Source of the DNA: a virus
Strand: one strand, 5' to 3'
DNA length: 64,000 bases
IMG/VR virus record: IMGVR_UViG_3300029319_000017
Coordinates: 23,893 to 87,892 of that record
Shown here: positions 9,001 through 42,707 of the stretch, one piece after another
Numbering within the stretch: position 1 is the stretch's first letter
How the letters are laid out: every line of letters starts with the position of its first letter
Translations under genes and position numbers: made by a program
The notes under the pieces: model-generated
Seen by the model: only the letters and a program-made list of their open reading frames with translations
What the model was told of the DNA's origin: nothing
Databases searched by the model: none

Positions 9001-12000
9001 TGTTTTTCTAATAATCTAGATTCTGTAAATGTTTTTTCAACTTTATCTAGTTTTTCAAAAAACTGTTCTATATCTTGGAATATATCTGGATTATTTTTTC
9101 TAAATTGTTTAAACTGTCTATAAGTAGGTAAACCTTCTACACCTTCCATTTCCATGTCAAGCATATCTTGGTCCATACCTCTAAGCCTAGTTCCTTGTAG
9201 GTTATAGTTTTTAGCAGCAGTGCCTGTTATATAAGTAAGTTGCTGTCTTAGTTTATCTCCTTTAAACTCATAATTATCAGGTATTTGACCTGTTTCTTTC
9301 ATTAGTGCTTCTCGTTGCTCTACCTGTTGTACATAGGCCTCTATTTCTCTAATAACTTCTTGGTATAAATCATCAAAGTTTTGTGCATTAGATTGATCTA
9401 AACCGCTGTTTTTAAGCTCTCTAATACGATCAAATATCATTTTTTCTAAAACATCTTTATGACCTTTTAGCTCATCTAATTTTAGATTTATAAGTTCAAT
9501 ATTTTTGTTTGTAGTTCCTGCCCATTCATTTATAGAAGTCTTAAGATCATTTGCTATTTCTGCAACAGCATCTCTATCTTCTCTAGTAGTAATAATTGGA
9601 GCATTTCTAATTTTTTGAGCTTCTTCTCTTAGTAATTCTTGCTCAAGTTGTAAAGCTTCTAAATTACTATTTCTAATATCACTGTCTTCTTCTCTATTAA
9701 GAACATCTATTTGTTCTTGTAATCTAAATAATTCATTGTCTATTTCTCCAAGCCTTTCAAATCTATCTATTTGGTCTATAGGTATTCCCTGCTCTATTGC
9801 TCCAAGTATAAGCGCTTCGTTTTCAGCTGCATATCTTTCAGTAAATTGACCTTGTTTATTTACATTAAACGATTTATTTAAATCTACACTAAACTCTCTT
9901 GTTTTAGGATTGTAGTGTAATGATACAAGTTCTTCTAGATAATCTATTTGATCTAGTATCATTTTTTGTTCTTTCCTTAGTTCTTCTATAAGGGCTTCTC
10001 CAGTATTTATCTGATCTTCAAGTTTTGCAAGAGCTTCTGTTACCTTTTTAACATTTATAAACTTGCCTTTGTTTCTACCAGTTTTAACTTGATTCTCTAA
10101 ACCCGACTCTTCTATTTCTATCATTAAATCTAGAATTTCTTTTTCTAGTTCTCCAATGTCTTTAGCAAGTTTTTCTACCCTAGTTCCCTTTTCTCTTTTT
10201 AATTCATCAATAGCATCTAATAATTTTTTAGCTCTAGCCTGTTTATCAGTGACTATATTTTCATCTCTACCTCCTAAGTTTTTAAGTATAGAAGAATCTA
10301 CTACATTAGTTGTACCTTCTTCTAATAAATTACCGCTAGAGTCAAACCTATACCATTTATCACCTACTCTAAATTTAGCTTTAGTTCCAAATTCTTCAAA
10401 CAGTTTTTGTGCTTCAGGATCATCTATATTATTTTTTGCAGTTTCACTTTCTACATCATCAACATATTTTTCTATTTCTTGTACAATCCTTAAACTTGTT
10501 TTATCTGGATTAGATCTTGCCATGTTATAGTCAGCAATAAATTGCTGTCTTCTAGCTCTTACATGCTTTAAATCTTTAAATAATTGTACAATTTGTTCTA
10601 TTTTATCTGCAGCTTTAGGATCTGTATTTATTAAATCTTTAAGTTGTGCTTCTAAAAATGCACGTAATGCTTGATCTTCTTTCATATCTAAAAATAGAGT
10701 AGCATCTCTATTTGTGCCTGCACTTAACCCTAAAAATTGTTTTGTAGATTCTAATTGATTTTCTAAAAACGATCTGTACTCTTGTACATCTTTAACTACA
10801 TTTTTTAACTGCTCAGGCACAACTAATTCAGAATCTTTTTTATCTAATAATTTTTGTACTTCTTCTAAATATTTTTTTGCACGTTCTTTACTAAATGCTC
10901 CTACAGTAAAACTTTGTTCATTTCCTTCTGAGTCAACATAAGTAATTGTTCTTGCTGCGCCTCTATTTTTAGAATCACCTTCAGTAACTTTACCTCCAGT
11001 TAACTTAGCTAAAAGCTCTGTCATAGACTTTTCTCTTTCAGATAATAGATCAATAGATGCTAATCTATGGGCCATTCTTTCTCTTAGACCCATTATTTTA
11101 TCATTTGTCCACTTTTGATTGTCAGTTAGTTTTAAAACTGCATCTACATCTTTAAAAGCTTGTTGTATTTTATTTGCCCTTCTTATAGCAGAGTCTGCCA
11201 TTTTATTTTTTCTAGCTTGTATTTCTTCAGGACTGTTAAAATCACTTTCTTGGTATCCAAAATACTCTATAAATTCTGCATCTGACATTTCTCTAATAGC
11301 ATCTGCTTCAGATTTTATATCAGCAAATTGACCTGTCATTACTTTAGCTTTTACATAAGCAAAGAATTTGTCATTTTGTAAATTTTTATATTCAGCGATA
11401 TTACCATCTGCTAAATGTTTATCCATTAAAGCTTGCAACTCTTGTTGCTCTGTATAAAAATCTGCATATGATTTTATACTAGTTAAAATATCTCTTCCAT
11501 GTTTATTATAATAATCTGCAGCTACATCTTGAAAAGCCTCATTCATTCTTACCTCATTTAACCTTGCACCTGCTGCAGTCCAAGAACCATTATTAAATGT
11601 TCCCCCTGGTAATCCTAACATACCTAACATAAATCCTAACATAACTTCTGTTTGTCCATTAGGATCTTTAAATGTTTTTATGTAACCTCTATTAAAAGAG
11701 TCTATTAAACTAGCAGTACCTTCTTTACCCATTATGCCGTGTTTAGCTAATGTATATTCGTAAGCAGCTTCAGATAAAACAGACTGTCCACCTTCTTCTA
11801 TATAACCTTCGTATAAAGCTGGTGCTCCCACGGCTTTAATTCTGCTTGCTGCCTTATTAATACGTATTGCATTTTTTTCACTAATCCCTAATAGTTTACT
11901 AGCTCTGTTAGCTGTATAGGCAGCTTTTGCAGTTCCATCTGCAGCCATTACTGTAGGTCTAGATGCAAGTCCAAGTTTACCCATTGCATTTTGATATCCT

Positions 12001-13133
12001 TGTTTTAAAGCTGCTCCTGGACCATATAAAGAGCCTAACATTATCATATTACTTACACCTACTAAAGCAACATTACCTGCAAATACAACATTTGCTTGGG
12101 CTCTAGCTTTATTTTCTATATCTAATTTTTCTTCTAGTGTTAACTCTCTAGCCTTACCTTCCTTTTTTTCTATCTGTCTTAAGTAATTAGTAGTTAACGT
12201 TTCTTTCATGTGCTCATAAGCCTGTCTAGATTCAACACCAGCCTCAAATCCTGCACCTGTAATTAACTGTCTTCCCATTGTAGTAGCTTCCCAGAATTTG
12301 TCAGACTTTATACCATTTTTAATTGCTTTTGTTATTTTAGTTGCATCTGCTGCCCTGTCTAAATATCTAGCTCCTCTACCAGCTGTTTTTAAAAGACGAG
12401 CAGCTCTACTAGCTAAAGCTGCAGTATACGCAGCTTGGACTGGACCTGTAGCACCAAATGTATATGCAGTTGCAGCACTTAATGCCATTTCTGTTAATGC
12501 AGCTCCTGCAACAAAACTTAAACCGTTTGTAAATTGATCTGACCAAAAGTTTGCTGTTCCTAATCTTTGCCATACACTCATTTCTCTTTCATAATTAGTG
12601 TAGTAATTAGGAAGCTTTCCATCCATATACTCATTAGCATCGTCTAAAGCATGCATAATAGAGTTATCCCATATTTTAGATACTGACCCATTTAGAATAG
12701 CAGATCCTGCACCGTATACTGTACCAATTGCACCACCAAGCACATTCGTACCAACTTTACCTACAGCTTTTGTAAGACCGTTTGCCCATTTATCAATAGT
12801 TCTTTGTCTTTGACCCCTAACTTCATTCATATCGTAGGTGTCTTCTAATCTTAATGGTGCATAAGAATCTTCTTTTTTCTCAAAAACTCCTGTATTTCCT
12901 ATAAATTGTACATTAGGTGTTTTTTGAAAAGGAGCAAGTAGTATACCCTGATTTGTAGGAGTGTATTTTTCTTGATTTTCAAGTTCTGGAATTTCTTCAA
13001 TAGAAGTTTGCTCAGGTTTTTCTGTTTGATCTTTTGTCTGATTCTCAGTTTGATTTTCAATGTTTTGATCTTCTTCAATAATAGGAAGATTATCTATCTT
13101 TTCTTTTTCTAAATTTTTTAAGTCTTCTAACAT
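1..13133 (-). CDS. Giant virion cargo polyprotein containing virion RNA polymerase (two-barrel, DFDID type) and a zincin-like metalloprotease; 3' end runs off the window (>4,377 aa)
   Basis: ATG at 13133 (MLEDLKNLEKEK...). The ORF track reports no terminated minus-strand ORF here, consistent with a frame open to position 1. In-frame motifs read from the sequence: KAGSDFDIDKL (DFDID 2060-2046), LIGFRIPTDG (~2190-2160), KLGTQ-like VTLGTQSR (~2920), TYHEGFHQV (6311-6297) followed by AEEYLAEEFR. DFDID is the catalytic motif of crAss-like/phi14:2 virion RNAPs. Confidence 0.93.
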   Translation of the reverse strand, partial: MLEDLKNLEKEKIDNLPIIEEDQNIENQTENQTKDQTEKPEQTSIEEIPELENQEKYTPTNQGILLAPFQKTPNVQFIGNTGVFEKKEDSYAPLRLEDTYDMNEVRGQRQRTIDKWANGLTKAVGKVGTNVLGGAIGTVYGAGSAILNGSVSKIWDNSIMHALDDANEYMDGKLPNYYTNYEREMSVWQRLGTANFWSDQFTNGLSFVAGAALTEMALSAATAYTFGATGPVQAAYTAALASRAARLLKTAGRGARYLDRAADATKITKAIKNGIKSDKFWEATTMGRQLITGAGFEAGVESRQAYEHMKETLTTNYLRQIEKKEGKARELTLEEKLDIENKARAQANVVFAGNVALVGVSNMIMLGSLYGPGAALKQGYQNAMGKLGLASRPTVMAADGTAKAAYTANRASKLLGISEKNAIRINKAASRIKAVGAPALYEGYIEEGGQSVLSEAAYEYTLAKHGIMGKEGTASLIDSFNRGYIKTFKDPNGQTEVMLGFMLGMLGLPGGTFNNGSWTAAGARLNEVRMNEAFQDVAADYYNKHGRDILTSIKSYADFYTEQQELQALMDKHLADGNIAEYKNLQNDKFFAYVKAKVMTGQFADIKSEADAIREMSDAEFIEYFGYQESDFNSPEEIQARKNKMADSAIRRANKIQQAFKDVDAVLKLTDNQKWTNDKIMGLRERMAHRLASIDLLSEREKSMTELLAKLTGGKVTEGDSKNRGAARTITYVDSEGNEQSFTVGAFSKERAKKYLEEVQKLLDKKDSELVVPEQLKNVVKDVQEYRSFLENQLESTKQFLGLSAGTNRDATLFLDMKEDQALRAFLEAQLKDLINTDPKAADKIEQIVQLFKDLKHVRARRQQFIADYNMARSNPDKTSLRIVQEIEKYVDDVESETAKNNIDDPEAQKLFEEFGTKAKFRVGDKWYRFDSSGNLLEEGTTNVVDSSILKNLGGRDENIVTDKQARAKKLLDAIDELKREKGTRVEKLAKDIGELEKEILDLMIEIEESGLENQVKTGRNKGKFINVKKVTEALAKLEDQINTGEALIEELRKEQKMILDQIDYLEELVSLHYNPKTREFSVDLNKSFNVNKQGQFTERYAAENEALILGAIEQGIPIDQIDRFERLGEIDNELFRLQEQIDVLNREEDSDIRNSNLEALQLEQELLREEAQKIRNAPIITTREDRDAVAEIANDLKTSINEWAGTTNKNIELINLKLDELKGHKDVLEKMIFDRIRELKNSGLDQSNAQNFDDLYQEVIREIEAYVQQVEQREALMKETGQIPDNYEFKGDKLRQQLTYITGTAAKNYNLQGTRLRGMDQDMLDMEMEGVEGLPTYRQFKQFRKNNPDIFQDIEQFFEKLDKVEKTFTESRLLEKHLKATNEEIDELNGIISEYKIQREDGDIDQQFINLDMMLNAIEYMNAVDEILAKLAQIEARVIAPTSTSSTSPNKPNNPPPSGRNYDMQADDMAKNNPFLFKPDIAGPGFYKTAGDQKTAMDTLKKLSIVDGKGNIILDENQEPTMREDLTLGEQNQFRAYRDQLIWFQATSKFVNMKKNKLMAVHSNNIPQDLEKDLKGVFFNNDQGKFMDYSHVDPNTTDIKLVLVDNTGKPVRVNAKGNTPKQGEKSYIVYTSMMGATLKDKNNVNRFTNSAGINVENALNEYKSDRDVILKSKTPILLDIKGMSAGLPNVINTVNGQKVLSPIKGRVIGSRGKKGTKDVVIQLTTKNLEDRGKVYSEITTPSGITYRVPFAGMAFTVTSAGNLAPLHLRTLNPKEAQNVINLLRIVQTRYEALKEDPANAKKDDKKLRQEAALLDVDGKKVFVFQKLKDMLYYGSGTEGQLAEDGVTRVDFFDTGKGYQMGDQFISYQDILDNNTSKLNDFLLNKLVNVNIKSLRNKNGKPSSTTPFYMPFYKETGVNTFELDDSVRFKWDNYEQYLLEAREDAAFAPPLQTNLPLMNNLSYITPQYKFRYLKFDIPGRDSRSGRVYQGEADPQAPENVVYTDIQKQEIKRYEKMLNDAKAGRPIEVEIMEGFKQAVDSKYAANLDNAEGFMLYNGDPKNISDQEYIDQLLEYLEEYKNTSRANSFRDFAFNKFKGRTEENNAAIVQGTTEQEVKENQTEVENEVEKRIEQNEKNIKKAEEAITGPPVQDFSDIPVQEDKEVSDVLGSPAEDNSIQDEIDKANEEKKDELFDDEEINLVVEQVYSGEQILDLAVEESKGVTQEEIDTINKMLPWNKVEFVAGFIKSKTPNVIGQVKGFGRTVVSELAVGGTTYHEGFHQVSYFLLNDKTRKQMYDEVRNNKGSFKDYKGKMVKFSNATDKQAEEYLAEEFRKWILSNETYKKDVYSKPKGFFARLFDRLRNFFRAMFGLDAQLQVDPNMQTVATIFNKIKAGEFADIKAPTETRNVEEVNMALLENDGNVTSARFSMDMMSTFTKHFGKTMFDDPNLKLTLSELEMLSNPNRYDEYNNKLVKIYKTAFSRMYDELGSKIKIYTDLASNTNDTALKDKYNLLAQRAAKARLFLNGGRVKTTRDGNIKSFQEVHRQFLLSIGIDTSLKVEKEENLKNGQSDPFNILESMQFSATGNSHPYIKLLLGTLANETTINITGTTGIVDSNYAMNFIQDRLSGITDPNKQIEKLKQLSDKHVWIKPLVKRLGELDDNSSFDQMKLSNMFAQQMNKTKNTFDSFVLDTEGNFYSVDPNANQLKNIIITPWRNNLKNSNVKDVDGRLLVSVQDGELKINLDYKPKIGKIRNKSLKQINQTGVLRSLVLDDPNTVLELFENFGFEFADRAAILNNLDKTIDGKTIKQILRDSASWVLSELNKPDNTLGADLFSRETIDAQTRLGNLLKVEMLFNDKAVELKHFNAEGKPVYGITLNTYMSLISNKLNSGILPEHFKNNPYVANSLVLKAISADPNAKIEMHVIEGLRIDRAGDQGLHTSHLTYEDRAAMYINSVLNGVIPILRTADAKTEYGVRFPIEQFTDPVDVREQLLGYFVDELTTAVNFNTKGLGKDIKDYNRKGGGLRVFKQIVESRLQPSEMIDLTNVLQGHMPINEFMGKNKSVIQSAIINYLNEEASKNKKLMLQTRILTKGKGNTFLNNGLDTQTVSNITGDKVGKQLTANQVDAIASAFALQNFIGNVEQLKLFFGDVAQYKDLYKRTKLASGTKKFPRVDDRMNSWLNNNEPEVSEEVKENYGEHNKSYNGQANIMIYADPVSESVYWREYAEYLGEDISNLYRNIEEADANAFANIHFYRELMMRIGDWTEQQENLFRKSMLGKELTKEELTAFPTLKPQGFGPAISELKQMVGLKLSLTPIFPQMTRINGQDTALKGLLKDMYESGTDMVMHPTAAKIGSRVDLVTGNAPQFYNEDGTINPIDSDLHTVIDLSYFGIQVDINKEFKGKVTLGTQSRTHILANLYEGGMPADYTGDIASWEKMTPEQKKKASSVHKDASDYLDAVNEITRRSRENLLKRFNLEKVVDSKGEVSYKLTGGNIQKFADMIRDEIAKRNYPENVAAGIESLLNQPDGDKKVFDIIVNKGRLENLLFSLVGNNSITQKVKGENAVQVSSLGSENTVRIVRQGKVESSGRNGLKFYRKKDPNNPNSETLGMEVYLPHYFKEFLGEGLQVRPDGVYNQRGQKVGDSNLLQLIGFRIPTDGLHSIDFMTIKGFLPPQSGAQVMVPSELVVKAGSDFDIDKLTLYMPSYTVKDGKITKREFINADTNTKEGIKQYYDALYGPFNRFWDKFSKDLVNARAQEMGSTEAAVENLLLAIFRDNPNVAGDQLYDYSDAEIEVLFSRFKKLANNPDKDRADRVEDVVAEFKKLEKKANKIPSLDEFFIENKGKNPVELNHMGAVQNRMIDLKTKILSTPRSYTQLLNPIGTRVILDIRSELGIAERQVSDAELISYPHIFNITKDFQSGKNGLGIAATNATHIVKSQQAGLYLRPNVTIEGVKEFSNIGINIEGFSGLTGSAIRLDRIYDIKGEHRITEIASELLNVFADASEDPIVADLNLVPEVGNALMFLLRSGVPVREAVFFINQPIIKEYISRLNANSSKINMVKNNPQSKATIFNAVLGYYAPTKKGSRRTPKLFSAENLKEMSTKTRTEIIEQGLGEDQLQVLEDFVLYDAVGGELTGLTLATSFDTAIPKSRNHAKLLLNKFDDIKHRNVFGNIDNLIQRTHLNEFYLTHEAASKQFNSMFLTERAGPRAVGQLDAIFDIFSDPRLPLSEAARLTVLNEAENELIVAALLAENFDGVKLGNKAEQLFLGERSAAKRVTELQKLYPNNPFLQSLLPSVEKVRTGPLRGTDNIKLYSRILNNYEANSLRDAFLELPETDQNMLIDHAILQSGMSLNNMSYLHILPTEKFTERAVRIVSKL

Positions 13134-28676: not shown

Positions 28677-28934
28677 TTATCTTGGTTTTTTTGCTTTTTT
28701 AGCTCTATCTGCAATAGCAGCAAAGTTTTTTGCACTACCTTCTAACTTACCTCCTTTCATCATCATTTTCTTTTTGCCCATTCCTCCATACATCATTTTC
28801 TTTTTTCCTTTAGTAGCACCTGCAATTCTATCAGCTTGAGTAGGATTTGGATTATTATCAATTCCTGCTTTAACACTAAGCATACCAAAATTTGATTTTC
28901 CTCCTTTTTTCATCATTTTCTTTTTACCGTACAT
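28677..28934 (-). CDS. Small Lys/Met/Gly-rich basic protein
   Basis: KKKMMKKGG, KKKMMYGG, KKKMMMKGG repeats flanking GIDNNPNPTQADRIAGA. Confidence 0.7.
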   Translation of the reverse strand: MYGKKKMMKKGGKSNFGMLSVKAGIDNNPNPTQADRIAGATKGKKKMMYGGMGKKKMMMKGGKLEGSAKNFAAIADRAKKAKKPR

Positions 28935-28938
28935 ATAA

Positions 28939-29313
28939 TTATTTTTTAATTTTTTCTACTGATCTTCCTCCAAAATAAGCACCTATTACAGTGATCAGTG
29001 TTAACTGTAATAAGTCTGTCCATTTTTCTTCTACCGTAAAAGATAGAAAACCTGCGTCTACAAAGATAAGCAACATTGTGCAGACAATCAAGAATAAAAG
29101 CACTACAGGTCTAACATTCTTAGATAACCAAGAATCTGACGCCATATCTGCTTTCCATCTATCTGTTACATTCTTTTGCAAATCTGCTTCAGAATCTAAC
29201 AACATTTTTTTCATAGCATTTTTAAGTGCTATCTTTTCTTCTTTAGATGTAACCACTTCGTCTATTATATTACCAGCGTCACCTACTAAAGATTTTAATA
29301 ATCCTTTTAACAT
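28939..29313 (-). CDS. Holin-like membrane protein (3TM / gene-transfer-release holin type)
   Basis: RWKADM.SDSWLSKNVRP + hydrophobic helices + AYFGGRS.EK; directly downstream of the lysin candidate. Confidence 0.75.
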   Translation of the reverse strand: MLKGLLKSLVGDAGNIIDEVVTSKEEKIALKNAMKKMLLDSEADLQKNVTDRWKADMASDSWLSKNVRPVVLLFLIVCTMLLIFVDAGFLSFTVEEKWTDLLQLTLITVIGAYFGGRSVEKIKK

Positions 29314-29315
29314 AT

Positions 29316-29924
29316 CTATATATTTAAGTCCTTACTTTCTAATAACGTATAGGTAAAACTATTACCCCAAGTATCTCTAGCTACTCTACATATATCCATA
29401 AACTCGTGCCAATCATCATTAGCTGCAATTACTTGACAGCCTGCTGACCATTTATCTACTTGTTTAGATTTTTTTCCTCCCCATTTAGTAGCTCTATGTA
29501 TATTAATACCAAACAAACCTGTTTGTGTATTATCATCACTTAGATCATACTTGTCGTCTTTATTAGCATCTCTATATACTGTTACAGGTCTACATTGACC
29601 TAATGCTTCATATCTACCTTGATGTAATCTTATTTTATGAGAACCTCTGTACTGCCCTTCTTTTAAAACAGCAACACCTTCTTTTCTCATAATGTTTTCA
29701 ACCCAGTATCGTCCTGGATCTGTTGTACAATCGTAAACATAAAACTCCCATTGGCCATCACATTTAAATGATAATGTAATTTTATCATCAAATTTATTTG
29801 TAATTTCTGTACCTGTATTAGAGTTTCTAATTCCTACAATGTTAAGGTTGTAGTCTCCTTTTTCAAACCAGTTATAGCTCTTCGCCTTAACTGCTTTTTC
29901 TATTATCTCTCTAGTTAAATCCAT
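29316..29924 (-). CDS. Putative endolysin, YkuD/L,D-transpeptidase-like fold
   Basis: LNIVGIR...FDD...TTDPG...GINIHRA...WSAGCQV (His...Ser-x-Gly-Cys catalytic pattern); next to the holin. Confidence 0.75.
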   Translation of the reverse strand: MDLTREIIEKAVKAKSYNWFEKGDYNLNIVGIRNSNTGTEITNKFDDKITLSFKCDGQWEFYVYDCTTDPGRYWVENIMRKEGVAVLKEGQYRGSHKIRLHQGRYEALGQCRPVTVYRDANKDDKYDLSDDNTQTGLFGINIHRATKWGGKKSKQVDKWSAGCQVIAANDDWHEFMDICRVARDTWGNSFTYTLLESKDLNI

Positions 29925-30332: not shown

Positions 30333-30713
30333 TTAATTAAATTGTTTTAATATTATTTCGTCCACCTTTGCCTGGACGTCTTTTTTATCTGCCTCTAATT
30401 GAAACATAATGTTTGCATTAAAAGTTTCTTCTACATTACCATTATTAAATATAATAACTGTAGGTATAGAAGTAATTTCAAACTCCTGTTGTAGGTCCAT
30501 ATGTGTTCCTATATCAACTCTATAAACTTCACATTCTTTTAAATTTGGTAACCATTTTACAGAATTTGCATCATTCCAACTTGCCCAAAACTCTACAACA
30601 ATTATTCCTCTGCTTACTTCTTTATCAAAATTGTCTGGTCCTAAATAAGATTGTCCTTGTGCAAATCCAAAAGAGGTTAATAAAAAAACTATATAGGTTA
30701 TAAATTTTTTCAT
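30333..30713 (-). CDS. Exported thioredoxin-fold protein lacking the CxxC motif
   Basis: Signal peptide MKKFITYIVFLLTSFGFA-Q; NFDKEV..GIIVVEFWASWN...VDI....LQQEFEITSIPTVIIFNNG follows the thioredoxin pattern, with WN in place of WCxxC. Confidence 0.8.
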   Translation of the reverse strand: MKKFITYIVFLLTSFGFAQGQSYLGPDNFDKEVSRGIIVVEFWASWNDANSVKWLPNLKECEVYRVDIGTHMDLQQEFEITSIPTVIIFNNGNVEETFNANIMFQLEADKKDVQAKVDEIILKQFN

Positions 30714-31060
30714 TTTTTAAGGGTTTTAATTTCTTCTTTTAATTCTTCTAAATCTTTGATCACACGATCAATTTTTTGACGCGCCATCTCATCTTTCATA
30801 TTAAACTCCATACGAGTTGGTGGCCATGTTTGTGTAGCTGCAGGATCTCCCATATCTATCATGTATGTTCCTGTTCCTGGTTTGGGTAATTCTAAGGCTT
30901 GTTCAACCTTACCTTCAAGTTCTACAAATTTAGAATTTATAGTACTCATTAACCCAAAATATGCAGAGATTATAGTAGCTACACCGACTACAATCCCTAT
31001 TAATGTTTTTATACTTATTTGAAATTTACTGTCTTCTGATATTTCTTTGTTCATTTTCAT
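30710..31060 (-). CDS. Single-pass membrane protein with coiled-coil C-terminal region
   Basis: TM segment LIGIVVGVATIISAYFGL; coiled-coil tail; 4-nt overlap with the thioredoxin-like gene. Confidence 0.65.
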   Translation of the reverse strand: MKMNKEISEDSKFQISIKTLIGIVVGVATIISAYFGLMSTINSKFVELEGKVEQALELPKPGTGTYMIDMGDPAATQTWPPTRMEFNMKDEMARQKIDRVIKDLEELKEEIKTLKK

Positions 31061-31867: not shown

Positions 31868-32746
31868 TTAAGATGTTATTTCAATTTCTGCATTAGCCCA
31901 ACCATATAATGTAGAAGAACTACCACTTGTTCTTCTAACACATAAAGTTAAACCTTGACCTGCTGTTAACGTATTACCACCAGTTACCGTAAAAATTTTC
32001 ATATAGTTTGTATTAGCTGTATAACTACCATCACAATCTGTTGCTGTCATAGTTGCTAAAGTTACGTTAGCAGTTGAATCATGTACTATAGGAACTTTTA
32101 CTACTTCCCACTCTAAATCTGCAGTTACAGTTTGATACCAAGCTACACTAATTTTATGTACAGTGCAATTTTGCGTTGCTATAAACGAGCACATTCTTAT
32201 AGCAGTAGAATCTGCTATAGACAAACCATCTAAAGAAGAAGTACTTATACTTTGACCATACATTGCAACATGATACCATCTGTTTACACTTGAGACTAAT
32301 GCCAAATAAAAATCATCTCCTTTTAATTTAACAAGAGATCTTGCTGTATTAGTTAAAGCAAATGTGCCAGTAGAATCAGGTAATGTTAATGTGCTACCAG
32401 TAATAGATGATGGAGCTACTATTCTTATTGAATCTGTCCCATTATCTGTATCTTCATAAAAATATAATTGTGCTGCACTAGAACTTGTACCACCTATATC
32501 TAATCTTCCATTTGATATATTTACTTTTGGAGTACCAAATAAATCTAAAGCACCAGCAGATGCTATACCCAGATCTGATACAACATTTACCATACTAGAT
32601 ACATTGTTAATAGTATTAGAAGTAATAGTTACAGTTTCAACATCTATTTGATTTGCACCTCCATATGTTAAAATACCATTAGCTGTAGACCCGTTAACTG
32701 TTAACGATTCTTCTTCTGGCCCTATAACTCTTCCTGGTTTACTCAT
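31868..32746 (-). CDS. Putative tail/head fibre protein
   Basis: S/T/G-rich; FYEDTDNG...APSSIT...TLTLPDSTGT fibre-type motif; beta-rich C-terminal domain. Confidence 0.6.
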   Translation of the reverse strand: MSKPGRVIGPEEESLTVNGSTANGILTYGGANQIDVETVTITSNTINNVSSMVNVVSDLGIASAGALDLFGTPKVNISNGRLDIGGTSSSAAQLYFYEDTDNGTDSIRIVAPSSITGSTLTLPDSTGTFALTNTARSLVKLKGDDFYLALVSSVNRWYHVAMYGQSISTSSLDGLSIADSTAIRMCSFIATQNCTVHKISVAWYQTVTADLEWEVVKVPIVHDSTANVTLATMTATDCDGSYTANTNYMKIFTVTGGNTLTAGQGLTLCVRRTSGSSSTLYGWANAEIEITS

Positions 32747-32958
32747 TATTTTTTTGCAAATTTTTCTACTCCACTAATACCAAAACATCCTAATACAACC
32801 CATACAAATGAGTCGTATACAAATTTATTAATAACTAAATCAGCTCCTACTGCTCCAGTTACTAAATCTATAATCATAACTACAACCATTATAAGAAATG
32901 CTACAAATCCAATTATAGATTTTTCATTCCAATCATTATTATCTTTAAATATCTTCAT
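32746..32958 (-). CDS. Small two-TM membrane protein (holin-like)
   Basis: Two hydrophobic helices; C-terminal LGCFGISGVEKFAKK. Confidence 0.6.
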   Translation of the reverse strand: MKIFKDNNDWNEKSIIGFVAFLIMVVVMIIDLVTGAVGADLVINKFVYDSFVWVVLGCFGISGVEKFAKK

Positions 32959-33300: not shown

Positions 33301-33648
33301 TTATAAGTCTAAAAAGTCTTGATAAGAATATGATGCATTATTAGACCCACCATTTTTATACATTTTCTTTTTACCTCCCATTTTAAATCCAGGTCCCATT
33401 TTTTTCTTATTTATTGGGCTATTTTTAACCCTTGTTGTTTTCTTTCTTCCTTCAGCGGGCACATTCGCAACAGTTCCACTATCTTTCGATTGCATTTTTT
33501 TCTTTAAGTCATCTGCTGTAACTGTTGAATAAGTTTTTCTTTTTTCAGTTAAATCAAGTGCTTTTTTTCTAAACTTAAATGTTTCTTTTCCTTTAGCCCT
33601 AGCTTTTTTAAATTTTTTTTCAAACCTAGATAATTTTCGTTTTGTCAT
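33301..33648 (-). CDS. Small basic protein ending in tag GGSNNASYSYQDFLDL
   Basis: FEKKFKKARAKGKETFKF basic domain; FKMGG and YKNGG motifs; C-terminal 16 aa identical to the neighbouring gene. Confidence 0.75.
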   Translation of the reverse strand: MTKRKLSRFEKKFKKARAKGKETFKFRKKALDLTEKRKTYSTVTADDLKKKMQSKDSGTVANVPAEGRKKTTRVKNSPINKKKMGPGFKMGGKKKMYKNGGSNNASYSYQDFLDL

Positions 33649-33677: not shown

Positions 33678-33974
33678 TTACAAATCTAAAAAATCTTGGT
33701 AACTATAAGAAGCATTATTAGATCCACCTTCTCTATATTTGCTATAGCTTATATTTCTTTCTTTTCTGTCTTTTTTTGTTGTCTTTATATTACCACCTTT
33801 AGGCAATACTGTTTTCTTTCCAGTTTTTCGTTTACCCATACCTGCTAATTTTCCACTAGCATCTCTTCTTACTGTTTTCTTTATTGTTCCGTCTTTGTTA
33901 TATTTTACTTTTATTTGACCACCGTCACTAGTTTTTGCCTTTTTAACTCTTTTTCGAGTACTAATATCTTTCAT
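33678..33974 (-). CDS. Small basic protein ending in tag GGSNNASYSYQDFLDL
   Basis: K/R-rich; YREGG then the same C-terminal tag. Confidence 0.75.
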   Translation of the reverse strand: MKDISTRKRVKKAKTSDGGQIKVKYNKDGTIKKTVRRDASGKLAGMGKRKTGKKTVLPKGGNIKTTKKDRKERNISYSKYREGGSNNASYSYQDFLDL

Positions 33975-33984
33975 AATTTTAATT

Positions 33985-34695
33985 TTAATTTAATTTATAT
34001 TTAATTTTACCATCTTCTATATACAAACCTTCACGCTCTTTTATAGCCTGTCCGTTTAAATTATATAGTATATTGTTGGTTTTAGATTTATTTATTAATT
34101 CATTTATAGACGAGTTACAAGGTTGTCCTGTATCACAATCTATGTATTCTGTAACATATTCTATAAACTCTACATATTCTATTTCTACAATTGTATCGTA
34201 AACAAATACGTCAACATATTCAATAACATCTACAAAAAGAGTATCTAAAACGTCTTCGTAAATGGTTACTGTATCTGTTATATAAATGTATTCTGGAACA
34301 AACACTTCTACTTCTACAGTGTCTATTACAATGTTGTATACATATTCTGTATTAACTATAGTATCAAATATTGTTTCATATATAGTCTCATATTCTATTT
34401 CATATATTGTATCACACTCTTCCCCAATAGGAGGTAAACAATCTAATGGTGATGTTGGTTCTGCGTTATCTTCATCAGAAGCATCTACACAATCTTCCCA
34501 CCCATCATTAAGATAAAATAAATCAGGACCATTAGGTACGCATCCATTAGGAGAATACTGTGTCCAATTTGCTGGATCATCACCGCAATAAAATCCATTT
34601 TGTTGTGCGCATTCTAAACATAGTTGTTGAAAGTCAAATTGCGAGTAAGCAAACGAGCTTACAAACGCAAATAATATTATAAATAATTTTTTCAT
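33985..34695 (-). CDS. Exported protein: LDL-receptor class A-like Cys motif, acidic DT[IV] repeats, T9SS-CTD-like C-terminus
   Basis: Signal MKKLFIILFAFVSSFAYS-Q; FYC...GCVP...NDGWEDCVDASDE; repeats DTIYE/DTIV/DTVEV/DTVTI/DTLF; tail SSINEL...ILYNLNGQ.I...GLYIEDGKIKYKLN. Confidence 0.7.
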   Translation of the reverse strand: MKKLFIILFAFVSSFAYSQFDFQQLCLECAQQNGFYCGDDPANWTQYSPNGCVPNGPDLFYLNDGWEDCVDASDEDNAEPTSPLDCLPPIGEECDTIYEIEYETIYETIFDTIVNTEYVYNIVIDTVEVEVFVPEYIYITDTVTIYEDVLDTLFVDVIEYVDVFVYDTIVEIEYVEFIEYVTEYIDCDTGQPCNSSINELINKSKTNNILYNLNGQAIKEREGLYIEDGKIKYKLN

Positions 34696-34697
34696 AA

Positions 34698-35750
34698 TTA
34701 AAAGAATAAATAGTTAAATCCAAATTTTACTTCATATACTGGTTTTTCCCAGTATTTTATATGTGTTCCCTCTATAAATAATCCTAGGTTTTTTGTTATT
34801 CTTTGTCCAAATACCATTCCTGCATCCCATTCTAACCAATCTAGATCTGATTTACCGTAATCAAATGAATAATCATCTAAGCCGTAATGATACGGTAAGC
34901 AATTAACCCAAGCATGTAACCAAAACTTAGGTGTATATTTATAATATGCAATTCCTACTACTGCACTTAATTCTTTTTGTATTCCTAATTTTTCTAATTC
35001 TCTTTCATTAAATCTTGCAACTGCATCCCCAAAGTGGTGGTTAAAGAACTCATCATTACTAGTTGCTACAAGAATAGAATCACCTCCTGATACATCATAC
35101 CAGTTATTATTAACATAGAAGCCTTGGATCCATTGTTCAGGGGCATATCCAAAATCTTCAGCTAATTGTTGGAAGGTTGATTCGCCTGGTACCCAAAAAT
35201 CCCTGATTGGTACAAAGCCATAAGCAGGATGAGCTCTAACCACTGCTCCTACTGTAAAGTCCCAGTTTCCTGAGTTTATTCTATATCTTGTGTCAAAAGA
35301 TGTATATTGCAAGTTTACTCTTTGATTATCTTTGTATTGGACTTTAGTGACGCATTTTTCACCCAAGTATCTAATCCAAAAATTTTGATCAGTAAACTTT
35401 TCACCACGATTACGTATAAAAGAATAATTAAACAAATACTCCCAACCATTAGAATTACCAATAGTAACGTTGTCTGCCACAGCTCTTTCAGTACCATAAT
35501 ACCATGTTTTAACTTTGTATTCATAATCAAATCTGGCTATCTTACGAATACCTATTGTTAAATTGTAATCGTAAGGATTAATTTCTGTTATATCTACATA
35601 TCCTTTATCTATTGCTCTGTAATCTTCTCTTTCAGAAAAAGAAGTATTTGTACTTACAGATGTATAAAATGTAGAGTATTTAAAAAAGTTTTTTATTTGT
35701 GCATTTCCTACTGCACACATTAATATAAGTAAAATTATTATATTTTTCAT
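34698..35750 (-). CDS. Putative outer-membrane beta-barrel protein
   Basis: Signal MKNIIILLILMCAVGNA-Q; aromatic-rich alternating strands (YNLTIGIRK, WEYLFNYSF, WDFTVGAV, LGLFIEG); C-terminal YEVKFGFNYLFF resembles a BAM beta-signal. Confidence 0.75.
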   Translation of the reverse strand: MKNIIILLILMCAVGNAQIKNFFKYSTFYTSVSTNTSFSEREDYRAIDKGYVDITEINPYDYNLTIGIRKIARFDYEYKVKTWYYGTERAVADNVTIGNSNGWEYLFNYSFIRNRGEKFTDQNFWIRYLGEKCVTKVQYKDNQRVNLQYTSFDTRYRINSGNWDFTVGAVVRAHPAYGFVPIRDFWVPGESTFQQLAEDFGYAPEQWIQGFYVNNNWYDVSGGDSILVATSNDEFFNHHFGDAVARFNERELEKLGIQKELSAVVGIAYYKYTPKFWLHAWVNCLPYHYGLDDYSFDYGKSDLDWLEWDAGMVFGQRITKNLGLFIEGTHIKYWEKPVYEVKFGFNYLFF

Positions 35751-38813: not shown

Positions 38814-41800
38814 TTAAATGCTATCGTCTGTTGTTATATCATCTCCGTCTACTTCTATATTAATTCCCCCAACTTGAATGCCATTATCTACTATATTATA
38901 AGTATATGGCTCTATTGGTTCTACATTACTTCCGATAACTGTATTATTATTACCTACTATGTATGAGCAAGGATTACATGATTTACAGTATTCACTTGCA
39001 AATTTATAAAATTTATCTAAATAATTTGTTGTTTCTGTTATAATTTTTGGATCTACACATATATCCCAATTTCTAGCCCCATTTCCATAAGGGTTTCCAC
39101 ATTGTGTTCCACAATCATTATTTGCTATATGAAATGTACCTGGAGAAACATCTCCTAACCAAGGTAATGTTACATTGTATTTAACATATGTATTAGGACC
39201 ATAAGATCCATTTCCTTGTCCTGTTGTAGGATCAACTGTAAATTCTATACTACCTCCTTCTTTCCAAATATCTTCACATGTTTTCTTTTCAGGATAATCT
39301 GGTGTTCCTGAGTCTGCACAATTGTGTATACAATCTAATCCGTTTTTGTCTGTTAAATATTTTATAAAAGACATAATTGCTAAATTTCTATCTTCACAAT
39401 TATCTTTTGATCCACCTAATAATCTTGTATACCAATTACCTACACCATTATACATACAATCTGTTATGTATTTTTGTTTTTGCACTCTATTTCTAGGCAA
39501 ACATTCTGGTTGATCTAATTCAAATTCACATACACCTTGATCTGTAGCACTGCCTGTACTTAATATAAACCAGTTATTTTCATCAGGCATAACAGTGCTA
39601 TCTTGTATTAAATTATAAACAATATTTTTACTTCCAGATCCGTAACCTGTATAATTATTAGCATAAATATTAAAACATCCAACATTAGCATGATGCTGTG
39701 ATACTCCTGATACATTTACTAATGGAGGAGTAGTATTAACATTTTCACCTGTATCTTGACTTGGACTGTTATAATCTATACTTCCTACTTGTCTTACTTC
39801 ATAGTTATAACATATTTTACCCCCTTCTTGTGGAATAGCTAATTCTAAAATATAATTACCATATCCAATATTTTCATTTACAGTGTCTAAAGGTTGAGAT
39901 AAACTAACCCATAAACCTGGAGGACTTAATGTATTTGGATTTAATCCTCCATTACTATCCCATGTACCAAAAGATGTATTATTATAGTTTTGAGCATCTA
40001 ACCCTGTAACCTTTGTTTCTGCTATTGGAGTTAAATCCATTGTTTCTGATATAGGAAAAGTATATTGATCTGGACTATATCCTTGAACTGTACCTCCTCC
40101 AGAAGGTTTTTTATATATTTTTAAAACTACGCCAGGAGGTAAATAAGTTGCATAACCTCCAGTTGACATAGTTGTTATACTCCAAGTTATTATAGGTTCA
40201 CCTGTAGCAAATAAATTAAATGTACCTGCTTGAATTTCATTTTCTATATCAGTAGATATTCCATTAAATTCTATCCCTATACCTAATCCACTTATAGTAA
40301 ATGTAGGACAAAACACACAATTATCATTATCAGGTATTGTTGTAAGTGGATTATAGTTTAATGCTTTAGGCATAGTACATCCTAATATTCCATACACACA
40401 TTGTCCATTATCTACATTAGCATCAGGATTATAATTAGCTGCTGTCATATCTGTGCAACCATATACTGCTGCTATACAAGATCCATCATCCCACTCTGCA
40501 TCACAATTATAATTAGAAGCAGTTTGATCTGTACACCCGCCCATAGCTGCAGTTTCTTGCATTATTAACATTCTTGCTGTACCAGAAACTTGTTGATTAC
40601 AGTTAGTTTCTCTTATATGTGTTTCTCCTCTTTGTGTACATTTAGTTTGAGTATTTTCTACCATTACTTCTACATAGTCTCCCTCAGAAGCTAAATGTGG
40701 ACCAAATCCTTGTTTTCTTTCTCCTCCTATTATCCAATTAATTACATCATAAGGACCTCTAGTTATACTTAAACTTTTTACACAAGCTTGGTTAGTATCA
40801 TTAATAATTATATCAATAGGTTCTTCAATGCAATCATATTGACATAAACTTTGTTTGCCATATGTTGCTTTAGCATCAAAATTACTAGCATTACGATCTG
40901 TACATCCTGCATATCCTACATAAAATCTATGTATGCTTTTACAATCAGTTACATTAGGAACATTTTCTACATAAGCTTCTAATGCCCACCATCCAACAGC
41001 TGCTTCTCTAATTAATGTAAATGTTTTGTCTACTGTAACTGTAGCTGTTGGAGTTATTGCAAGAATTTCTGCATTTGTTTTGCTATTTGCATTTTCTGTG
41101 TTTCCTAAAGAATATACTCTAATTTTATACGCTTCATCAGAATCAGATGAGATATGATCAAATAAAGGTGGAAATATTTTACCTCTAAAATTAATAAGAC
41201 CATTACCACTTATTGTTTGAGCATGCTCTACACTTGATCCATCGTTAGATACAAAGTCTACACCAACAGGTCTATTAGAACCACTATCATCATCGCCATA
41301 TGTTAATCCATTATATGCATTTCCATATTGATCATTTGCTCGACAGAAAAAACATACACTATCACCAGTTGTTGATTCTGTAGAATCATAATTAGCTGCA
41401 CCAGAATCTGTACAAGCTGTTTTAGCTGATTCGTTATTTTTTGTTTTAAGTCTTATAAAAGTATTTTGAGTACAACTATTAGAATCTGATACTGTTATTT
41501 GATAAGGCTGCCAATATTGATCTAAACGTTTTAATCCAGTAAACGTATGAGTTGTGCTTGATACAGATCCAGATGAAACTTGTGTAACTATTCCATCATC
41601 GTCATGTTTTAATAATAAATAAGTATAATTTGCCGCACCTCCAGTTACTGTTACTTTAATTGCGCCAGTATTGTTAGACGCTCCATAATTATCAGGACTT
41701 ACATCTTCTACTACCATACTAAATCCATCACAATCAGAATTACAACAATGGCCATCTACAAATCTTTTATTTTTGTAATCTCCTATAGATGTTCCTTCAC

Positions 41801-42707
41801 AATCATTTCCTGACGCTAAGAAAAAAGATGGGTTACGTGCATCTAAACATACTTGATGCTCAGGCGCATCATCTGCTATAAAATATAAATTAGATGCGTA
41901 TACAAAACTATATGTAAATGGTGCTGTATTTACACTATCTAACAATTGTTGGTTTGTACCTATGTTTTCATTAGTAGTAAGTAAATTTATAAAATGTATT
42001 TCTTGTTCTTCTCTACCAGAATATAAATGTCCTACACCACGATTAGATATTCCATTATCTACATCGTTATTTGTTGATGTAACACCTTGTTCTACAAATA
42101 TCTCATTTAAATATGATGAGTTTGTATAATGTGCAAAAGGTAAATTTAATTTATATACACCTGAATAGTTATAAACATCATATGGATCTTTTTTAGGAAA
42201 TACAGCTCCTAAAATACTATTACTAGATCTTTTATTTGCAGAAAAATCTAACGACAACATATTTTCATATGGTGACGTTGTAATCATTGATGTTATGTTT
42301 TCTATTTGATCATTTAATTTAGAAGATATACCTGGTACTTTTAAAACAATTGTTTTTCTAAAACCAGATTGAAATGATAAAGTTAAAGTTTTATCAGATG
42401 CTGTTTTCTTTGTCCAATTTTTATATGTAATAGTTATGTGTCTCCACTTATACTCAAAATCTATTTTACGATTATAATCATGATCTATAATATTAACTAC
42501 TGGTTCAAACTCATAACTATCATGTGATTTAATATCAATTTTTAATTGATTATTAGATTGTAAGTATGCAACACCTTGTACAAGTTTAGGAGACGTAGGT
42601 GAAAATACATTTAGAGGAGTTGATCCGTTACCAAATACAGTTTTACCGTCATAGTTAGAAAACCTGTCGTCAAAAGTTGAGTAATAATTAGTTGATTCGT
42701 TTGCCAT
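38814..42707 (-). CDS. Large Cys-rich structural protein (tail hub/fibre-associated) with GCTDxxAxNY repeats
   Basis: Repeats ACTDSGAANYD, GCTDRNASNFD, GCTDQTASNYN, GCTDMTAANYN, GCTMPKALNYN; SprB-like GAIKVTVTGG...YTY. Confidence 0.65.
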   Translation of the reverse strand: MANESTNYYSTFDDRFSNYDGKTVFGNGSTPLNVFSPTSPKLVQGVAYLQSNNQLKIDIKSHDSYEFEPVVNIIDHDYNRKIDFEYKWRHITITYKNWTKKTASDKTLTLSFQSGFRKTIVLKVPGISSKLNDQIENITSMITTSPYENMLSLDFSANKRSSNSILGAVFPKKDPYDVYNYSGVYKLNLPFAHYTNSSYLNEIFVEQGVTSTNNDVDNGISNRGVGHLYSGREEQEIHFINLLTTNENIGTNQQLLDSVNTAPFTYSFVYASNLYFIADDAPEHQVCLDARNPSFFLASGNDCEGTSIGDYKNKRFVDGHCCNSDCDGFSMVVEDVSPDNYGASNNTGAIKVTVTGGAANYTYLLLKHDDDGIVTQVSSGSVSSTTHTFTGLKRLDQYWQPYQITVSDSNSCTQNTFIRLKTKNNESAKTACTDSGAANYDSTESTTGDSVCFFCRANDQYGNAYNGLTYGDDDSGSNRPVGVDFVSNDGSSVEHAQTISGNGLINFRGKIFPPLFDHISSDSDEAYKIRVYSLGNTENANSKTNAEILAITPTATVTVDKTFTLIREAAVGWWALEAYVENVPNVTDCKSIHRFYVGYAGCTDRNASNFDAKATYGKQSLCQYDCIEEPIDIIINDTNQACVKSLSITRGPYDVINWIIGGERKQGFGPHLASEGDYVEVMVENTQTKCTQRGETHIRETNCNQQVSGTARMLIMQETAAMGGCTDQTASNYNCDAEWDDGSCIAAVYGCTDMTAANYNPDANVDNGQCVYGILGCTMPKALNYNPLTTIPDNDNCVFCPTFTISGLGIGIEFNGISTDIENEIQAGTFNLFATGEPIITWSITTMSTGGYATYLPPGVVLKIYKKPSGGGTVQGYSPDQYTFPISETMDLTPIAETKVTGLDAQNYNNTSFGTWDSNGGLNPNTLSPPGLWVSLSQPLDTVNENIGYGNYILELAIPQEGGKICYNYEVRQVGSIDYNSPSQDTGENVNTTPPLVNVSGVSQHHANVGCFNIYANNYTGYGSGSKNIVYNLIQDSTVMPDENNWFILSTGSATDQGVCEFELDQPECLPRNRVQKQKYITDCMYNGVGNWYTRLLGGSKDNCEDRNLAIMSFIKYLTDKNGLDCIHNCADSGTPDYPEKKTCEDIWKEGGSIEFTVDPTTGQGNGSYGPNTYVKYNVTLPWLGDVSPGTFHIANNDCGTQCGNPYGNGARNWDICVDPKIITETTNYLDKFYKFASEYCKSCNPCSYIVGNNNTVIGSNVEPIEPYTYNIVDNGIQVGGINIEVDGDDITTDDSI

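Follow-up and report, generated by a model that had tools for sequence, protein, structure and literature searches.

We analysed a 64,000-nucleotide stretch of viral DNA (the window), bases 23893-87892 of IMG/VR record IMGVR_UViG_3300029319_000017, and in it two adjacent genes, A and B, which may belong to a module that acts on the host outer membrane. The genome from which the window comes is 87.9 kb long and complete by CheckV estimate. From 0 to 59 kb of the window the genes are closely packed and nearly all of them are on the minus strand. The terminase, portal and major head proteins of the genome match PHROGs, and the terminase is ~40% identical, over 97-99% of its length, to those of crAss-like phages of Bacteroides, Flavobacterium and Cellulophaga. 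We conclude that this is an uncultured marine crAss-like phage with a Bacteroidota-like host, in agreement with the host traits seen in an initial annotation made from the sequence. Both open reading frames (ORFs) lie where that annotation had placed them, and have the lengths that it gave (350 and 236 residues). The features of the two genes are as follows, with model confidence given as the predicted local distance difference test (pLDDT).

34698-35750, minus strand: A, a 350-residue Sec-exported outer-membrane β-barrel (from the ORF, the AlphaFold2 model and fold matches)
34983-35225, minus strand: insert of A, residues 176-256, ~80 residues forming helices and a hairpin (pLDDT 78-90)
33985-34695, minus strand: B, a 236-residue secreted, strongly acidic protein
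34438-34620, minus strand: Cys-rich module of B, residues 26-86, of the low-density lipoprotein receptor class A (LDLa) class, divergent and of Ca2+ type
34138-34416, minus strand: stalk of B, residues 94-186, with acidic and hydrophobic DT[IV] repeats
33988-34116, minus strand: tail of B, residues 194-236, 43 residues with a helix and three short strands

The barrel protein A and the secreted protein B

A belongs to a large family without a name. Searches of Pfam, NCBIfam and PHROGs returned no named family for A or for any of 43 aligned relatives, while 303 word-sharing relatives and 241 representative clusters at E ≤ 1e-3, down to ~30% identity, were found among viruses, and at least 595 IMG/VR stretches encode a relative. 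In the ESM Atlas the clusters of A were 100% viral, with generic barrels as the nearest named clusters, and the queried proteins returned their own viral clusters only. A single-protein scan of cellular genomes gave no A relatives, and a search with a smaller alignment gave seven contigs of metagenome-assembled genomes (MAGs) with A relatives, all of them phage-like in content; where the bin is labelled Pelagibacter, Woesearchaeota or Arcobacter, the contig was probably mis-binned. In these searches the A family is seen only in viruses. Among the annotated phages of INPHARED there was no DNA match to the window, and tblastn against the same set gave no match for A, B or S (described below) and only weak thioredoxin-like matches for T, indicating that no copy of the module is detectable in those cultured crAss-like phages of Flavobacterium and Cellulophaga that have the terminase in common with this phage.

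The signal peptides were judged by sequence heuristics, as a hydrophobic core followed by [ASGTC]Q. The N-terminal core is present in 118/120 close homologues of A and is followed by [ASGTC]Q in 102/120, and both elements are present in 120/120 homologues of B, in which Q19 is invariant in the 39-row alignment. The Sec signal peptides followed by Gln described initially are thus well conserved. The C-terminal residue of A is Phe in 118/120 close homologues, with the consensus end FGFNYL[IF]F, and in distant homologues it is F, Y or I, or else K/R preceded by an aromatic residue. Aromatic residues make up 70 of the 333 residues of the mature protein. An AlphaFold2 model built on a 43-row alignment (pLDDT 78, predicted TM-score 0.70) has long strands, and all 33 matches found by Foldseek in the PDB at E ≤ 1e-3 are outer-membrane barrels, among them NanC, FapF, autotransporter β-domains, OMPLA and OmpG. 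These results confirm A as a barrel with aromatic strands, a terminal Phe and a large internal loop, as had been proposed from the sequence. Because the TM-scores of the PDB matches are 0.23-0.53, the likeness to solved barrels is generic. Comparison with BFVD gave a single true homologue (TM 0.64, unnamed); the remaining significant matches were phage-encoded porin-like or barrel-like proteins. At the sequence level, the A profile had only three weak matches in the PDB (E 0.23-0.28), all to the helical adhesin FadA. A is presumably a client of the β-barrel assembly machinery (BAM).

Reading the DSSP string of the model gives 12 strands. If strands are counted back from the C-terminus, taken as periplasmic, the model suggests that the insert at residues 176-256 is probably extracellular, and that a long turn at residues 71-101, which is conserved and modelled with low confidence, would lie on the periplasmic side. 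The insert is the best-conserved part of A, and near-invariant positions in this region are H174, Y177, G178, P181, A197, G201, W217, A229, E234, F235 and N248. The near-invariant polar residues of the protein as a whole are E104, R113, R127, K136, R155, R172, H174, E234, N248, S262, H279 and E327. A has no conserved cysteine, and we therefore rejected a disulfide coupling of A to a partner of the kind seen for SprF and GldK.

B starts 2 nt past the A stop codon. Natural length variants show the layout of the protein: a signal peptide, the Cys-rich module, the stalk, a DCxTGLPC motif and a conserved tail, in this order. The mature form contains 47 acidic residues and 7 basic ones; nine cysteines are invariant, six of these in residues 26-86. 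In this region B reads NDGWEDCVDASDE where canonical LDLa has CDG..DC.DGSDE. Like the LDLa module of PF00057, this region of B has six invariant cysteines and the acidic Ca2+-cage motif DGWEDCVDASDE; it differs in having Asn for the Cys before DG, and its cysteine spacing is longer than canonical. Against PF00057 itself B scored 11.5 bits, below the cut-off of 24.1, with a match confined to residues 64-77 and model positions 23-36. However, the weak matches of the module profile in the PDB were LDLa modules in 17/17 cases, and the region is 58-73% identical to modules in the large proteins P0393-P0396. Residues 29-82 of B are 61% identical to residues 349-398 of P0396 (E=2e-18), and in this protein Pfam places Ldl_recept_a above the cut-off at residues 371-394, on the B-like module (30.4 bits for the protein). 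P0396, P0393 and P0394 also carry Por_Secre_tail, the C-terminal domain (CTD) of type IX secretion system (T9SS) cargo. From the Pfam placement in P0396, the PDB matches and the Por_Secre_tail on its carriers, the N-terminal domain of B is a divergent LDLa-class module as found in T9SS cargo. The LDLa motif of the initial annotation therefore stands by homology to the P0396 module, which passes PF00057, but not by the score of B itself. We set aside chelation of Ca2+ by B as a means of weakening the outer membrane, reasoning that this is implausible in seawater.

The acidic DT[IV] stalk was also upheld. DT[IVL] occurs six times in B, a count reached by 0/10,000 shuffles. In natural homologues the stalk ranges from ~10 to >100 residues, and its DNA shows only a weak 12/24-bp periodicity. 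AlphaFold2 gave A as a confident barrel but B, modelled from its 39-row alignment, without a fold (mean pLDDT 36), and the stalk is unfolded in this model. The tail, LYNLNGQAIK-ERE-GLYI-EDGKIKYKL, has predicted strands at residues 210-212, 223-227 and 230-234, with a pLDDT of 60-73 in a model whose mean is 36.

Conserved linkage of A to S, T and lysis genes

Two further genes of the window, S and T, accompany A across related loci. Their features and those of neighbouring genes are as follows.

30710-31060, minus strand: S, a 116-residue type-II inner-membrane protein (phrog_20984, of unknown function)
30333-30713, minus strand: T, a 126-residue exported protein of thioredoxin fold (PF00085, E=3.7e-9)
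29316-29924, minus strand: E202, endolysin-like, 202 residues (phrog_33083, endolysin, E=1.4e-14; also phrog_3000)
28939-29313, minus strand: H, a holin of 124 residues with three transmembrane helices (phrog_3427, E=1.2e-30; PF11351, E=5e-5)
32746-32958, minus strand: h2, 70 residues with two transmembrane helices and a charged C-terminus; recurs in the cassettes
relatives only: E15, a Peptidase_M15_3 endolysin
relatives only: C, a secreted family of ~180 residues with a B-like tail at its end

To follow these genes we built profiles for the neighbours of A and compared loci seeded with A or with S, scoring the link to lysis with three lysis profiles only. S and T lie downstream of A, on the same strand, in 54/58 A-seeded loci with at least 4 kb of downstream sequence, and in 50 of the same 58 S is present together with an endolysin or holin match. 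Conversely, of the 72 S-seeded loci that have 1.5 kb or more of upstream sequence, 63 contain A, and in 80/80 T comes after S. The genes are also closely spaced: S starts no more than 10 bp from the end of A or B in 37/68 loci, and most close relatives have 2-4 nt between A and B. In the window and its two closest relatives ~2.5 kb separates B from S. Five MAG contigs, with A proteins of only 30-40% identity, keep the A-S-T order. These three are core genes and tightly coupled. B is not part of this core. The 25 distant A-seeded loci (L056-L066, L068-L081) all have A and no B, as do most S-seeded loci, and the function of A therefore cannot depend on B.

Typical gene orders are A-B-S-T-E15-H and A-S-T-(C)-E15-H, and also E202-(x)-A-B-S-T (L013-L022), H-A-S-T (L070) and S-T-A-x-E202 (L076), orders in which lysis genes precede the set or flank A. 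The A-B pair had at first seemed out of place in a structural operon. We find instead a conserved envelope module, which in this clade adjoins the holin and endolysin genes.

S begins with a transmembrane helix, continues with a Pro-rich linker and ends in a coiled coil, the layout of an i-spanin. Members of the family are 89-122 residues long. The S profile matched mostly coiled-coil or other helical proteins in the PDB, all with E above 0.05, and in PHROGs an Rz-like match was obtained for 1/36 members only, and weakly (E=0.0056). Prediction of a complex between mature A and periplasmic S scored 0.00 in two runs without controls, and this counts neither for nor against binding. One S homologue (L068:7086-7760), of 224 residues, carries an additional N-terminal domain on the cytoplasmic side, ~130 residues long and including a poly-Pro run; this suggests that S is open to regulation from the cytoplasmic side.

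T lacks the CxxC motif, its site reading WASWNDAN, with WN..N in place of CxxC. A single Cys column is present in 49/65 members of the T family, and the number of invariant cysteines in B, nine, is odd; an intermolecular disulfide involving T and B is conceivable from these sequences. A staphylococcal-nuclease-like gene follows T, ahead of h2 or a terminase gene, in L125, L130 and L136. h2 had no family match in the profile libraries, and by its two helices and charged end it looks like a putative holin-like protein.

A regular-expression scan for lipoboxes among 1,624 candidate ORFs of the 87.9-kb genome gave no credible o-spanin or u-spanin, and the same scan of the coding strand at 28.6-36.7 kb gave no credible o-spanin. 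Directly after the holin gene lies an 85-residue protein (28677-28934, minus strand) that is extremely K/G/M-rich and highly basic. Judged by this composition, it could be a cationic disruptin-type outer-membrane-active peptide, or else a DNA-binding or virion protein. Furthermore, two relatives encode signal-peptide proteins of 135-139 residues inside their lysis cassettes (L059:8764-9183, L061:8702-9109). These have ends like those of outer-membrane proteins (...GLLYKL, ...GVSYKF) and a weak hint of a DUF5777 barrel, and would represent a second type of phage-encoded barrel in the vicinity of lysis genes.

Tailed proteins and the type IX secretion system

The initial annotation had likened the tail of B to type-A T9SS CTDs. 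We found no match of B to TIGR04183 or PF18962 at E ≤ 10, and 0/39 members of the B family match these models, whereas two Flavobacteriales MAGs, searched with the T9SS CTD model as a positive control, yielded 38 and 14 matches above its cut-off. No standard T9SS CTD was found anywhere in the genome of this phage. With 43 residues and three predicted strands, the tail is also unlike a type-A CTD, which is a seven-strand sandwich of ~70-100 residues. Aligned by hhalign with 24 natural CTDs, it matched over 13 columns, corresponding to one hairpin motif (P=0.0095). A profile of the short tail gave two weak matches in the two Flavobacteriales MAGs, both at the C-termini of signal-peptide proteins.

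The tail is more similar to a second kind of CTD. Ye et al. 2025 (PMC11969387) described short T9SS CTDs in Prevotella intermedia, for five of which the cleavage site is known from experiment; such CTDs span 40-51 residues, form one three-stranded sheet and have a gap of 1-6 residues from motif B to motif D. The B tail is similar in its length and in its approximately three predicted strands, and inspection of LYNLNGQAIK / ERE / GLYI / ..K.K suggests, in order, a motif B of Y..G and a basic residue, a gap of three residues, a motif D (GxY-I) and a basic motif E. It differs in that no cleavage motif of the PT/GI type is evident in B, and the short CTDs were shown in a Bacteroidales species, not in Flavobacteriia. 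Thus the type-A assignment was not borne out, while the short-CTD pattern, together with the Por_Secre_tail found on proteins of relatives (below), keeps a link to the T9SS plausible; by its sequence, the tail resembles a short T9SS CTD.

Tails of both kinds are found on proteins encoded near A. Among ten large neighbours of A that we tested in relatives, seven have Por_Secre_tail (27.3-55.3 bits, cut-off 27), and the other three have short tails. With a CTD hidden Markov model (HMM) of our own at E ≤ 1e-5, a CTD ORF was detected in 26/80 S-seeded loci and in none of the window or L002-L081. By comparison of coordinates, such ORFs often end 1-4 bp before the start of A; in L084, for example, the stop of a 994-residue CTD protein is at 7999 and the start of A at 8001. 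Within 4.5 kb of A, a tailed secreted protein is encoded in 46/55 A-seeded and 22/33 S-seeded loci, counts that are heuristic and too low, since five known short-tail cases were missed. From this frequency, the recurring unit is [tailed secreted protein]-A-S-T. At least 9/55 A-seeded loci have A-S-T without a tailed protein.

The C family is one source of such tails. Its tails align weakly with those of B by hhalign (31 columns, P=0.0077, probability 5%), and the C profile also matches large signal-peptide proteins. C proteins (e.g. L058:7971-8480) and the neighbours in L133, L139 and L141 have a common N-terminal domain with the motifs DxYPxETxW and SYGDGWNG, which has no Pfam match and occurs with short tails or with full T9SS CTDs.

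We also compared A with the PorP/SprF barrels of the T9SS. PF11751 had no match at E ≤ 10 in the whole genome, while the control search found six natural PorP/SprF proteins in two genomes (G001 and G002). Aligned with these six by hhalign, A matched over the signal peptide only (probability 11%), and we rejected A as a PorP/SprF protein. S and T have no T9SS counterpart that we know of. The linkage of cargo genes to PorP/SprF-like shuttle genes is an established pattern (PMC12618676), and the locus is similar to these systems (PMC12618676, PMC9143113) in that, in a Bacteroidota setting, the gene of a tailed secreted protein has as its neighbour that of an outer-membrane barrel (~300-350 residues). 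In contrast to them, A is not homologous, the linked CTDs in relatives are type A and not type B, and the B tail is a 43-residue short form. Type-A cargo use the PorV of the host and need no dedicated barrel (PMC12618676), and SprF acts through cysteines in its C-tail (PMC12635249).

Possible roles in lysis and at the cell surface

How phages of Bacteroidota breach the outer membrane is, to our knowledge, not known. In the survey by Kongari et al. 2018 (PMC6139136), no spanin was found in 91/677 phages, among them a Bacteroides phage and Croceibacter phages. We hypothesize that a late envelope module of marine crAss-like phages on Flavobacteriia-type hosts, made up of a tailed protein (here B), A, S and T, would perform or control the outer-membrane step of lysis. 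Opening of the inner membrane would fall to the holin and cutting of the wall to the endolysin-like enzyme. A complex anchored by S in the inner membrane and by A in the outer membrane would then break the latter, T and/or B serving as connectors in the periplasm. In this scheme A would replace the lipoprotein o-spanin of proteobacterial phages. B would be a variable accessory part, Sec-exported, disulfide-rich and Ca2+-binding in type, which may pass on through the T9SS via its short CTD-like tail.

The proposal is based on folds or fold classes, export signals, gene linkage and the lack of a lipoprotein spanin candidate. A role in lysis is suggested by the barrel fold of A, the tight A-S-T linkage and the lysis genes upstream of A or flanking it, by the i-spanin layout of S at the size of T4 PseT.3 (117 residues; PMC6139136) in a genome with no lipoprotein spanin candidate, and by the failure of the same survey to find spanins in the few Bacteroidota phages that it covers. 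The two-component spanins of phages lambda (Rz/Rz1) and T4 (PseT.3/PseT.2) offer the closest comparison, for like their inner-membrane members S is a type-II protein with a periplasmic helix-linker-helix, encoded beside an outer-membrane-targeted partner and matching T4 PseT.3 in size. In the clade of the window, S and A adjoin the holin and endolysin genes and the genes are tightly coupled or overlapping, as in those systems. However, the outer-membrane partner here is a BAM-type barrel of 330 residues and there a small lipoprotein; here a third constant part, T, is present, and the genome has no lipobox ORF. S resembles i-spanins in its architecture. We infer from these data where the proteins reside, all contacts between them and their part in lysis. 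We rank such a lysis-linked outer-membrane-disruption module, anchored by a barrel, first among the explanations considered, as a substantial possibility that falls somewhat short of probable. A bolder form of the proposal, which we hold only tentatively, is that A-S-T would be a new, lipoprotein-free class of spanin, with a 12-strand barrel and a coiled coil as anchors and a dead thioredoxin as connector, that the phage would also send B to the same site as minimal-CTD cargo, and that this is how spanin-less marine Bacteroidota phages finish lysis.

Several observations weigh against a role in lysis. A lysis profile match was obtained in only 24/60 of the more distant, S-seeded loci with at least 3.5 kb downstream, a figure that reflects the three lysis families profiled, since other endolysin types would escape them. 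In the S-seeded set A-S-T may be followed by a nuclease gene, by basic proteins, or by terminase and portal genes, and in 9/72 S-seeded loci S-T occurs without A within ~5 kb. The insert of A, which in the model is probably extracellular, would not be needed by a periplasmic bridge. The small basic protein encoded after the holin gene could be the outer-membrane agent instead, and none of the INPHARED phages is a cultured relative with the module. Finally, the linkage of A to tailed proteins, many of which have a genuine T9SS CTD, is about as tight as that to lysis genes, which points to export or surface display.

We place T9SS-assisted display second, as a somewhat unlikely explanation, and one that does not exclude a role in lysis. 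The host T9SS would export the tailed proteins and A would be their shuttle or anchor, similar in role to PorP/SprF or PorV, and the surface of the infected cell, changed in this way, would serve superinfection exclusion, receptor masking, adhesion or occupation of the T9SS. The Por_Secre_tail of most large neighbours, the CTD ORFs of the S-seeded loci and their position just before A, the frequency of tailed proteins near A, the module that B has in common with the T9SS cargo P0393-P0396, and the conserved and probably extracellular insert of A all favor this, as do the fit of the B tail to short CTDs in length, strand number and motif spacing and the published linkage of cargo to shuttle genes. 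However, only the signal peptide of A aligns with PorP/SprF and there is no PF11751 match, type-A cargo would not need such a barrel, A has no conserved cysteine to act as those of SprF do, A-S-T is kept in loci without a tailed protein, and this genome has no standard CTD. Core, tightly coupled genes are also unusual for exclusion functions. Lambda Lom is a phage-encoded outer-membrane protein, and morons are sporadic genes. A is unlike Lom in being a core gene, syntenic at 30-40% A identity and coupled to S and T, and it is unrelated to the 8-strand Lom/Ail family. A and B are nevertheless similar to Lom and to the T9SS cargo of 'Cryophage' (Bellas et al. 2020, PMC7468147) as phage proteins sent to the host outer membrane or surface, and the latter, the one report of phage-encoded T9SS cargo, is a precedent for display. 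Of the purposes listed in the initial annotation, outer-membrane disruption fits the context best.

Three other explanations appear less probable. A alone might weaken or permeabilise the outer membrane at the end of infection, as an enzyme barrel (OMPLA, PagL, LpxR) or a pore, with S and T as regulators. The presence of OMPLA, NanC, OmpG and other 12-14-strand barrels among the fold matches, the many near-invariant polar residues and the linkage of A to the lysis cassette are consistent with this, but the likeness is generic, with nothing specific to OMPLA, and the A profile found no enzyme among solved structures, only FadA, so that we think it improbable. We give less credence still to A as a dedicated secretion channel for B, in the manner of two-partner secretion or of the amyloid exporter FapF, with the stalk passing to the surface. 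The short gap between A and B, the place of FapF and autotransporter β-domains among the top fold matches, and a stalk rich in β-prone residues agree with such a channel; the many loci that have A and no B, the generic fold likeness and the lack of a predicted fold for B do not. That A and B are ordinary virion or tail-fibre parts with misread signal peptides seems very improbable. The two genes do lie just downstream of tail-fibre-like genes, and an upstream gene of 283 residues overlaps the start of A. However, signal peptides followed by Gln are kept across hundreds of homologues, A has an outer-membrane barrel fold and a C-terminal β-signal, the nine invariant cysteines of B suit an oxidising compartment, and in relatives the genes sit with S, T, endolysin and holin.

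Other features of the window were noted in passing. Next to B, two adjacent and very basic proteins of 98 and 115 residues (33678-33974 and 33301-33648, both on the minus strand) have the same last 16 residues, GGSNNASYSYQDFLDL. This end may be a docking or targeting peptide, perhaps for internal virion proteins. A protein of 1297 residues without a signal peptide (38814-42707, minus strand) has repeated Cys modules of the form GCTD..NYN..DDGSC, which also occur in signal-peptide proteins of relatives (L137:7949-9640, L180:8183-10252), and the modules thus seem common to probable fibre proteins and secreted proteins. At 3-13133 (minus strand) an ORF of at least 4377 residues runs off the end of the window, typical of the virion-packaged polymerase region of crAss-like phages.

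Neither this module nor a barrel protein in the lysis cassette of a phage was described in the literature that we searched; the parts are of known structural classes, and their assembly has no characterised counterpart. Because A is abundant, seen only in viruses and linked to the i-spanin-like S, it is a concrete candidate for the missing lysis step in phages of Bacteroidota. If surface display is true, abundant ocean phages would routinely exploit the T9SS of their hosts, as reported so far for one phage only. With either explanation, four unannotated families of a major marine virus group would gain a function.

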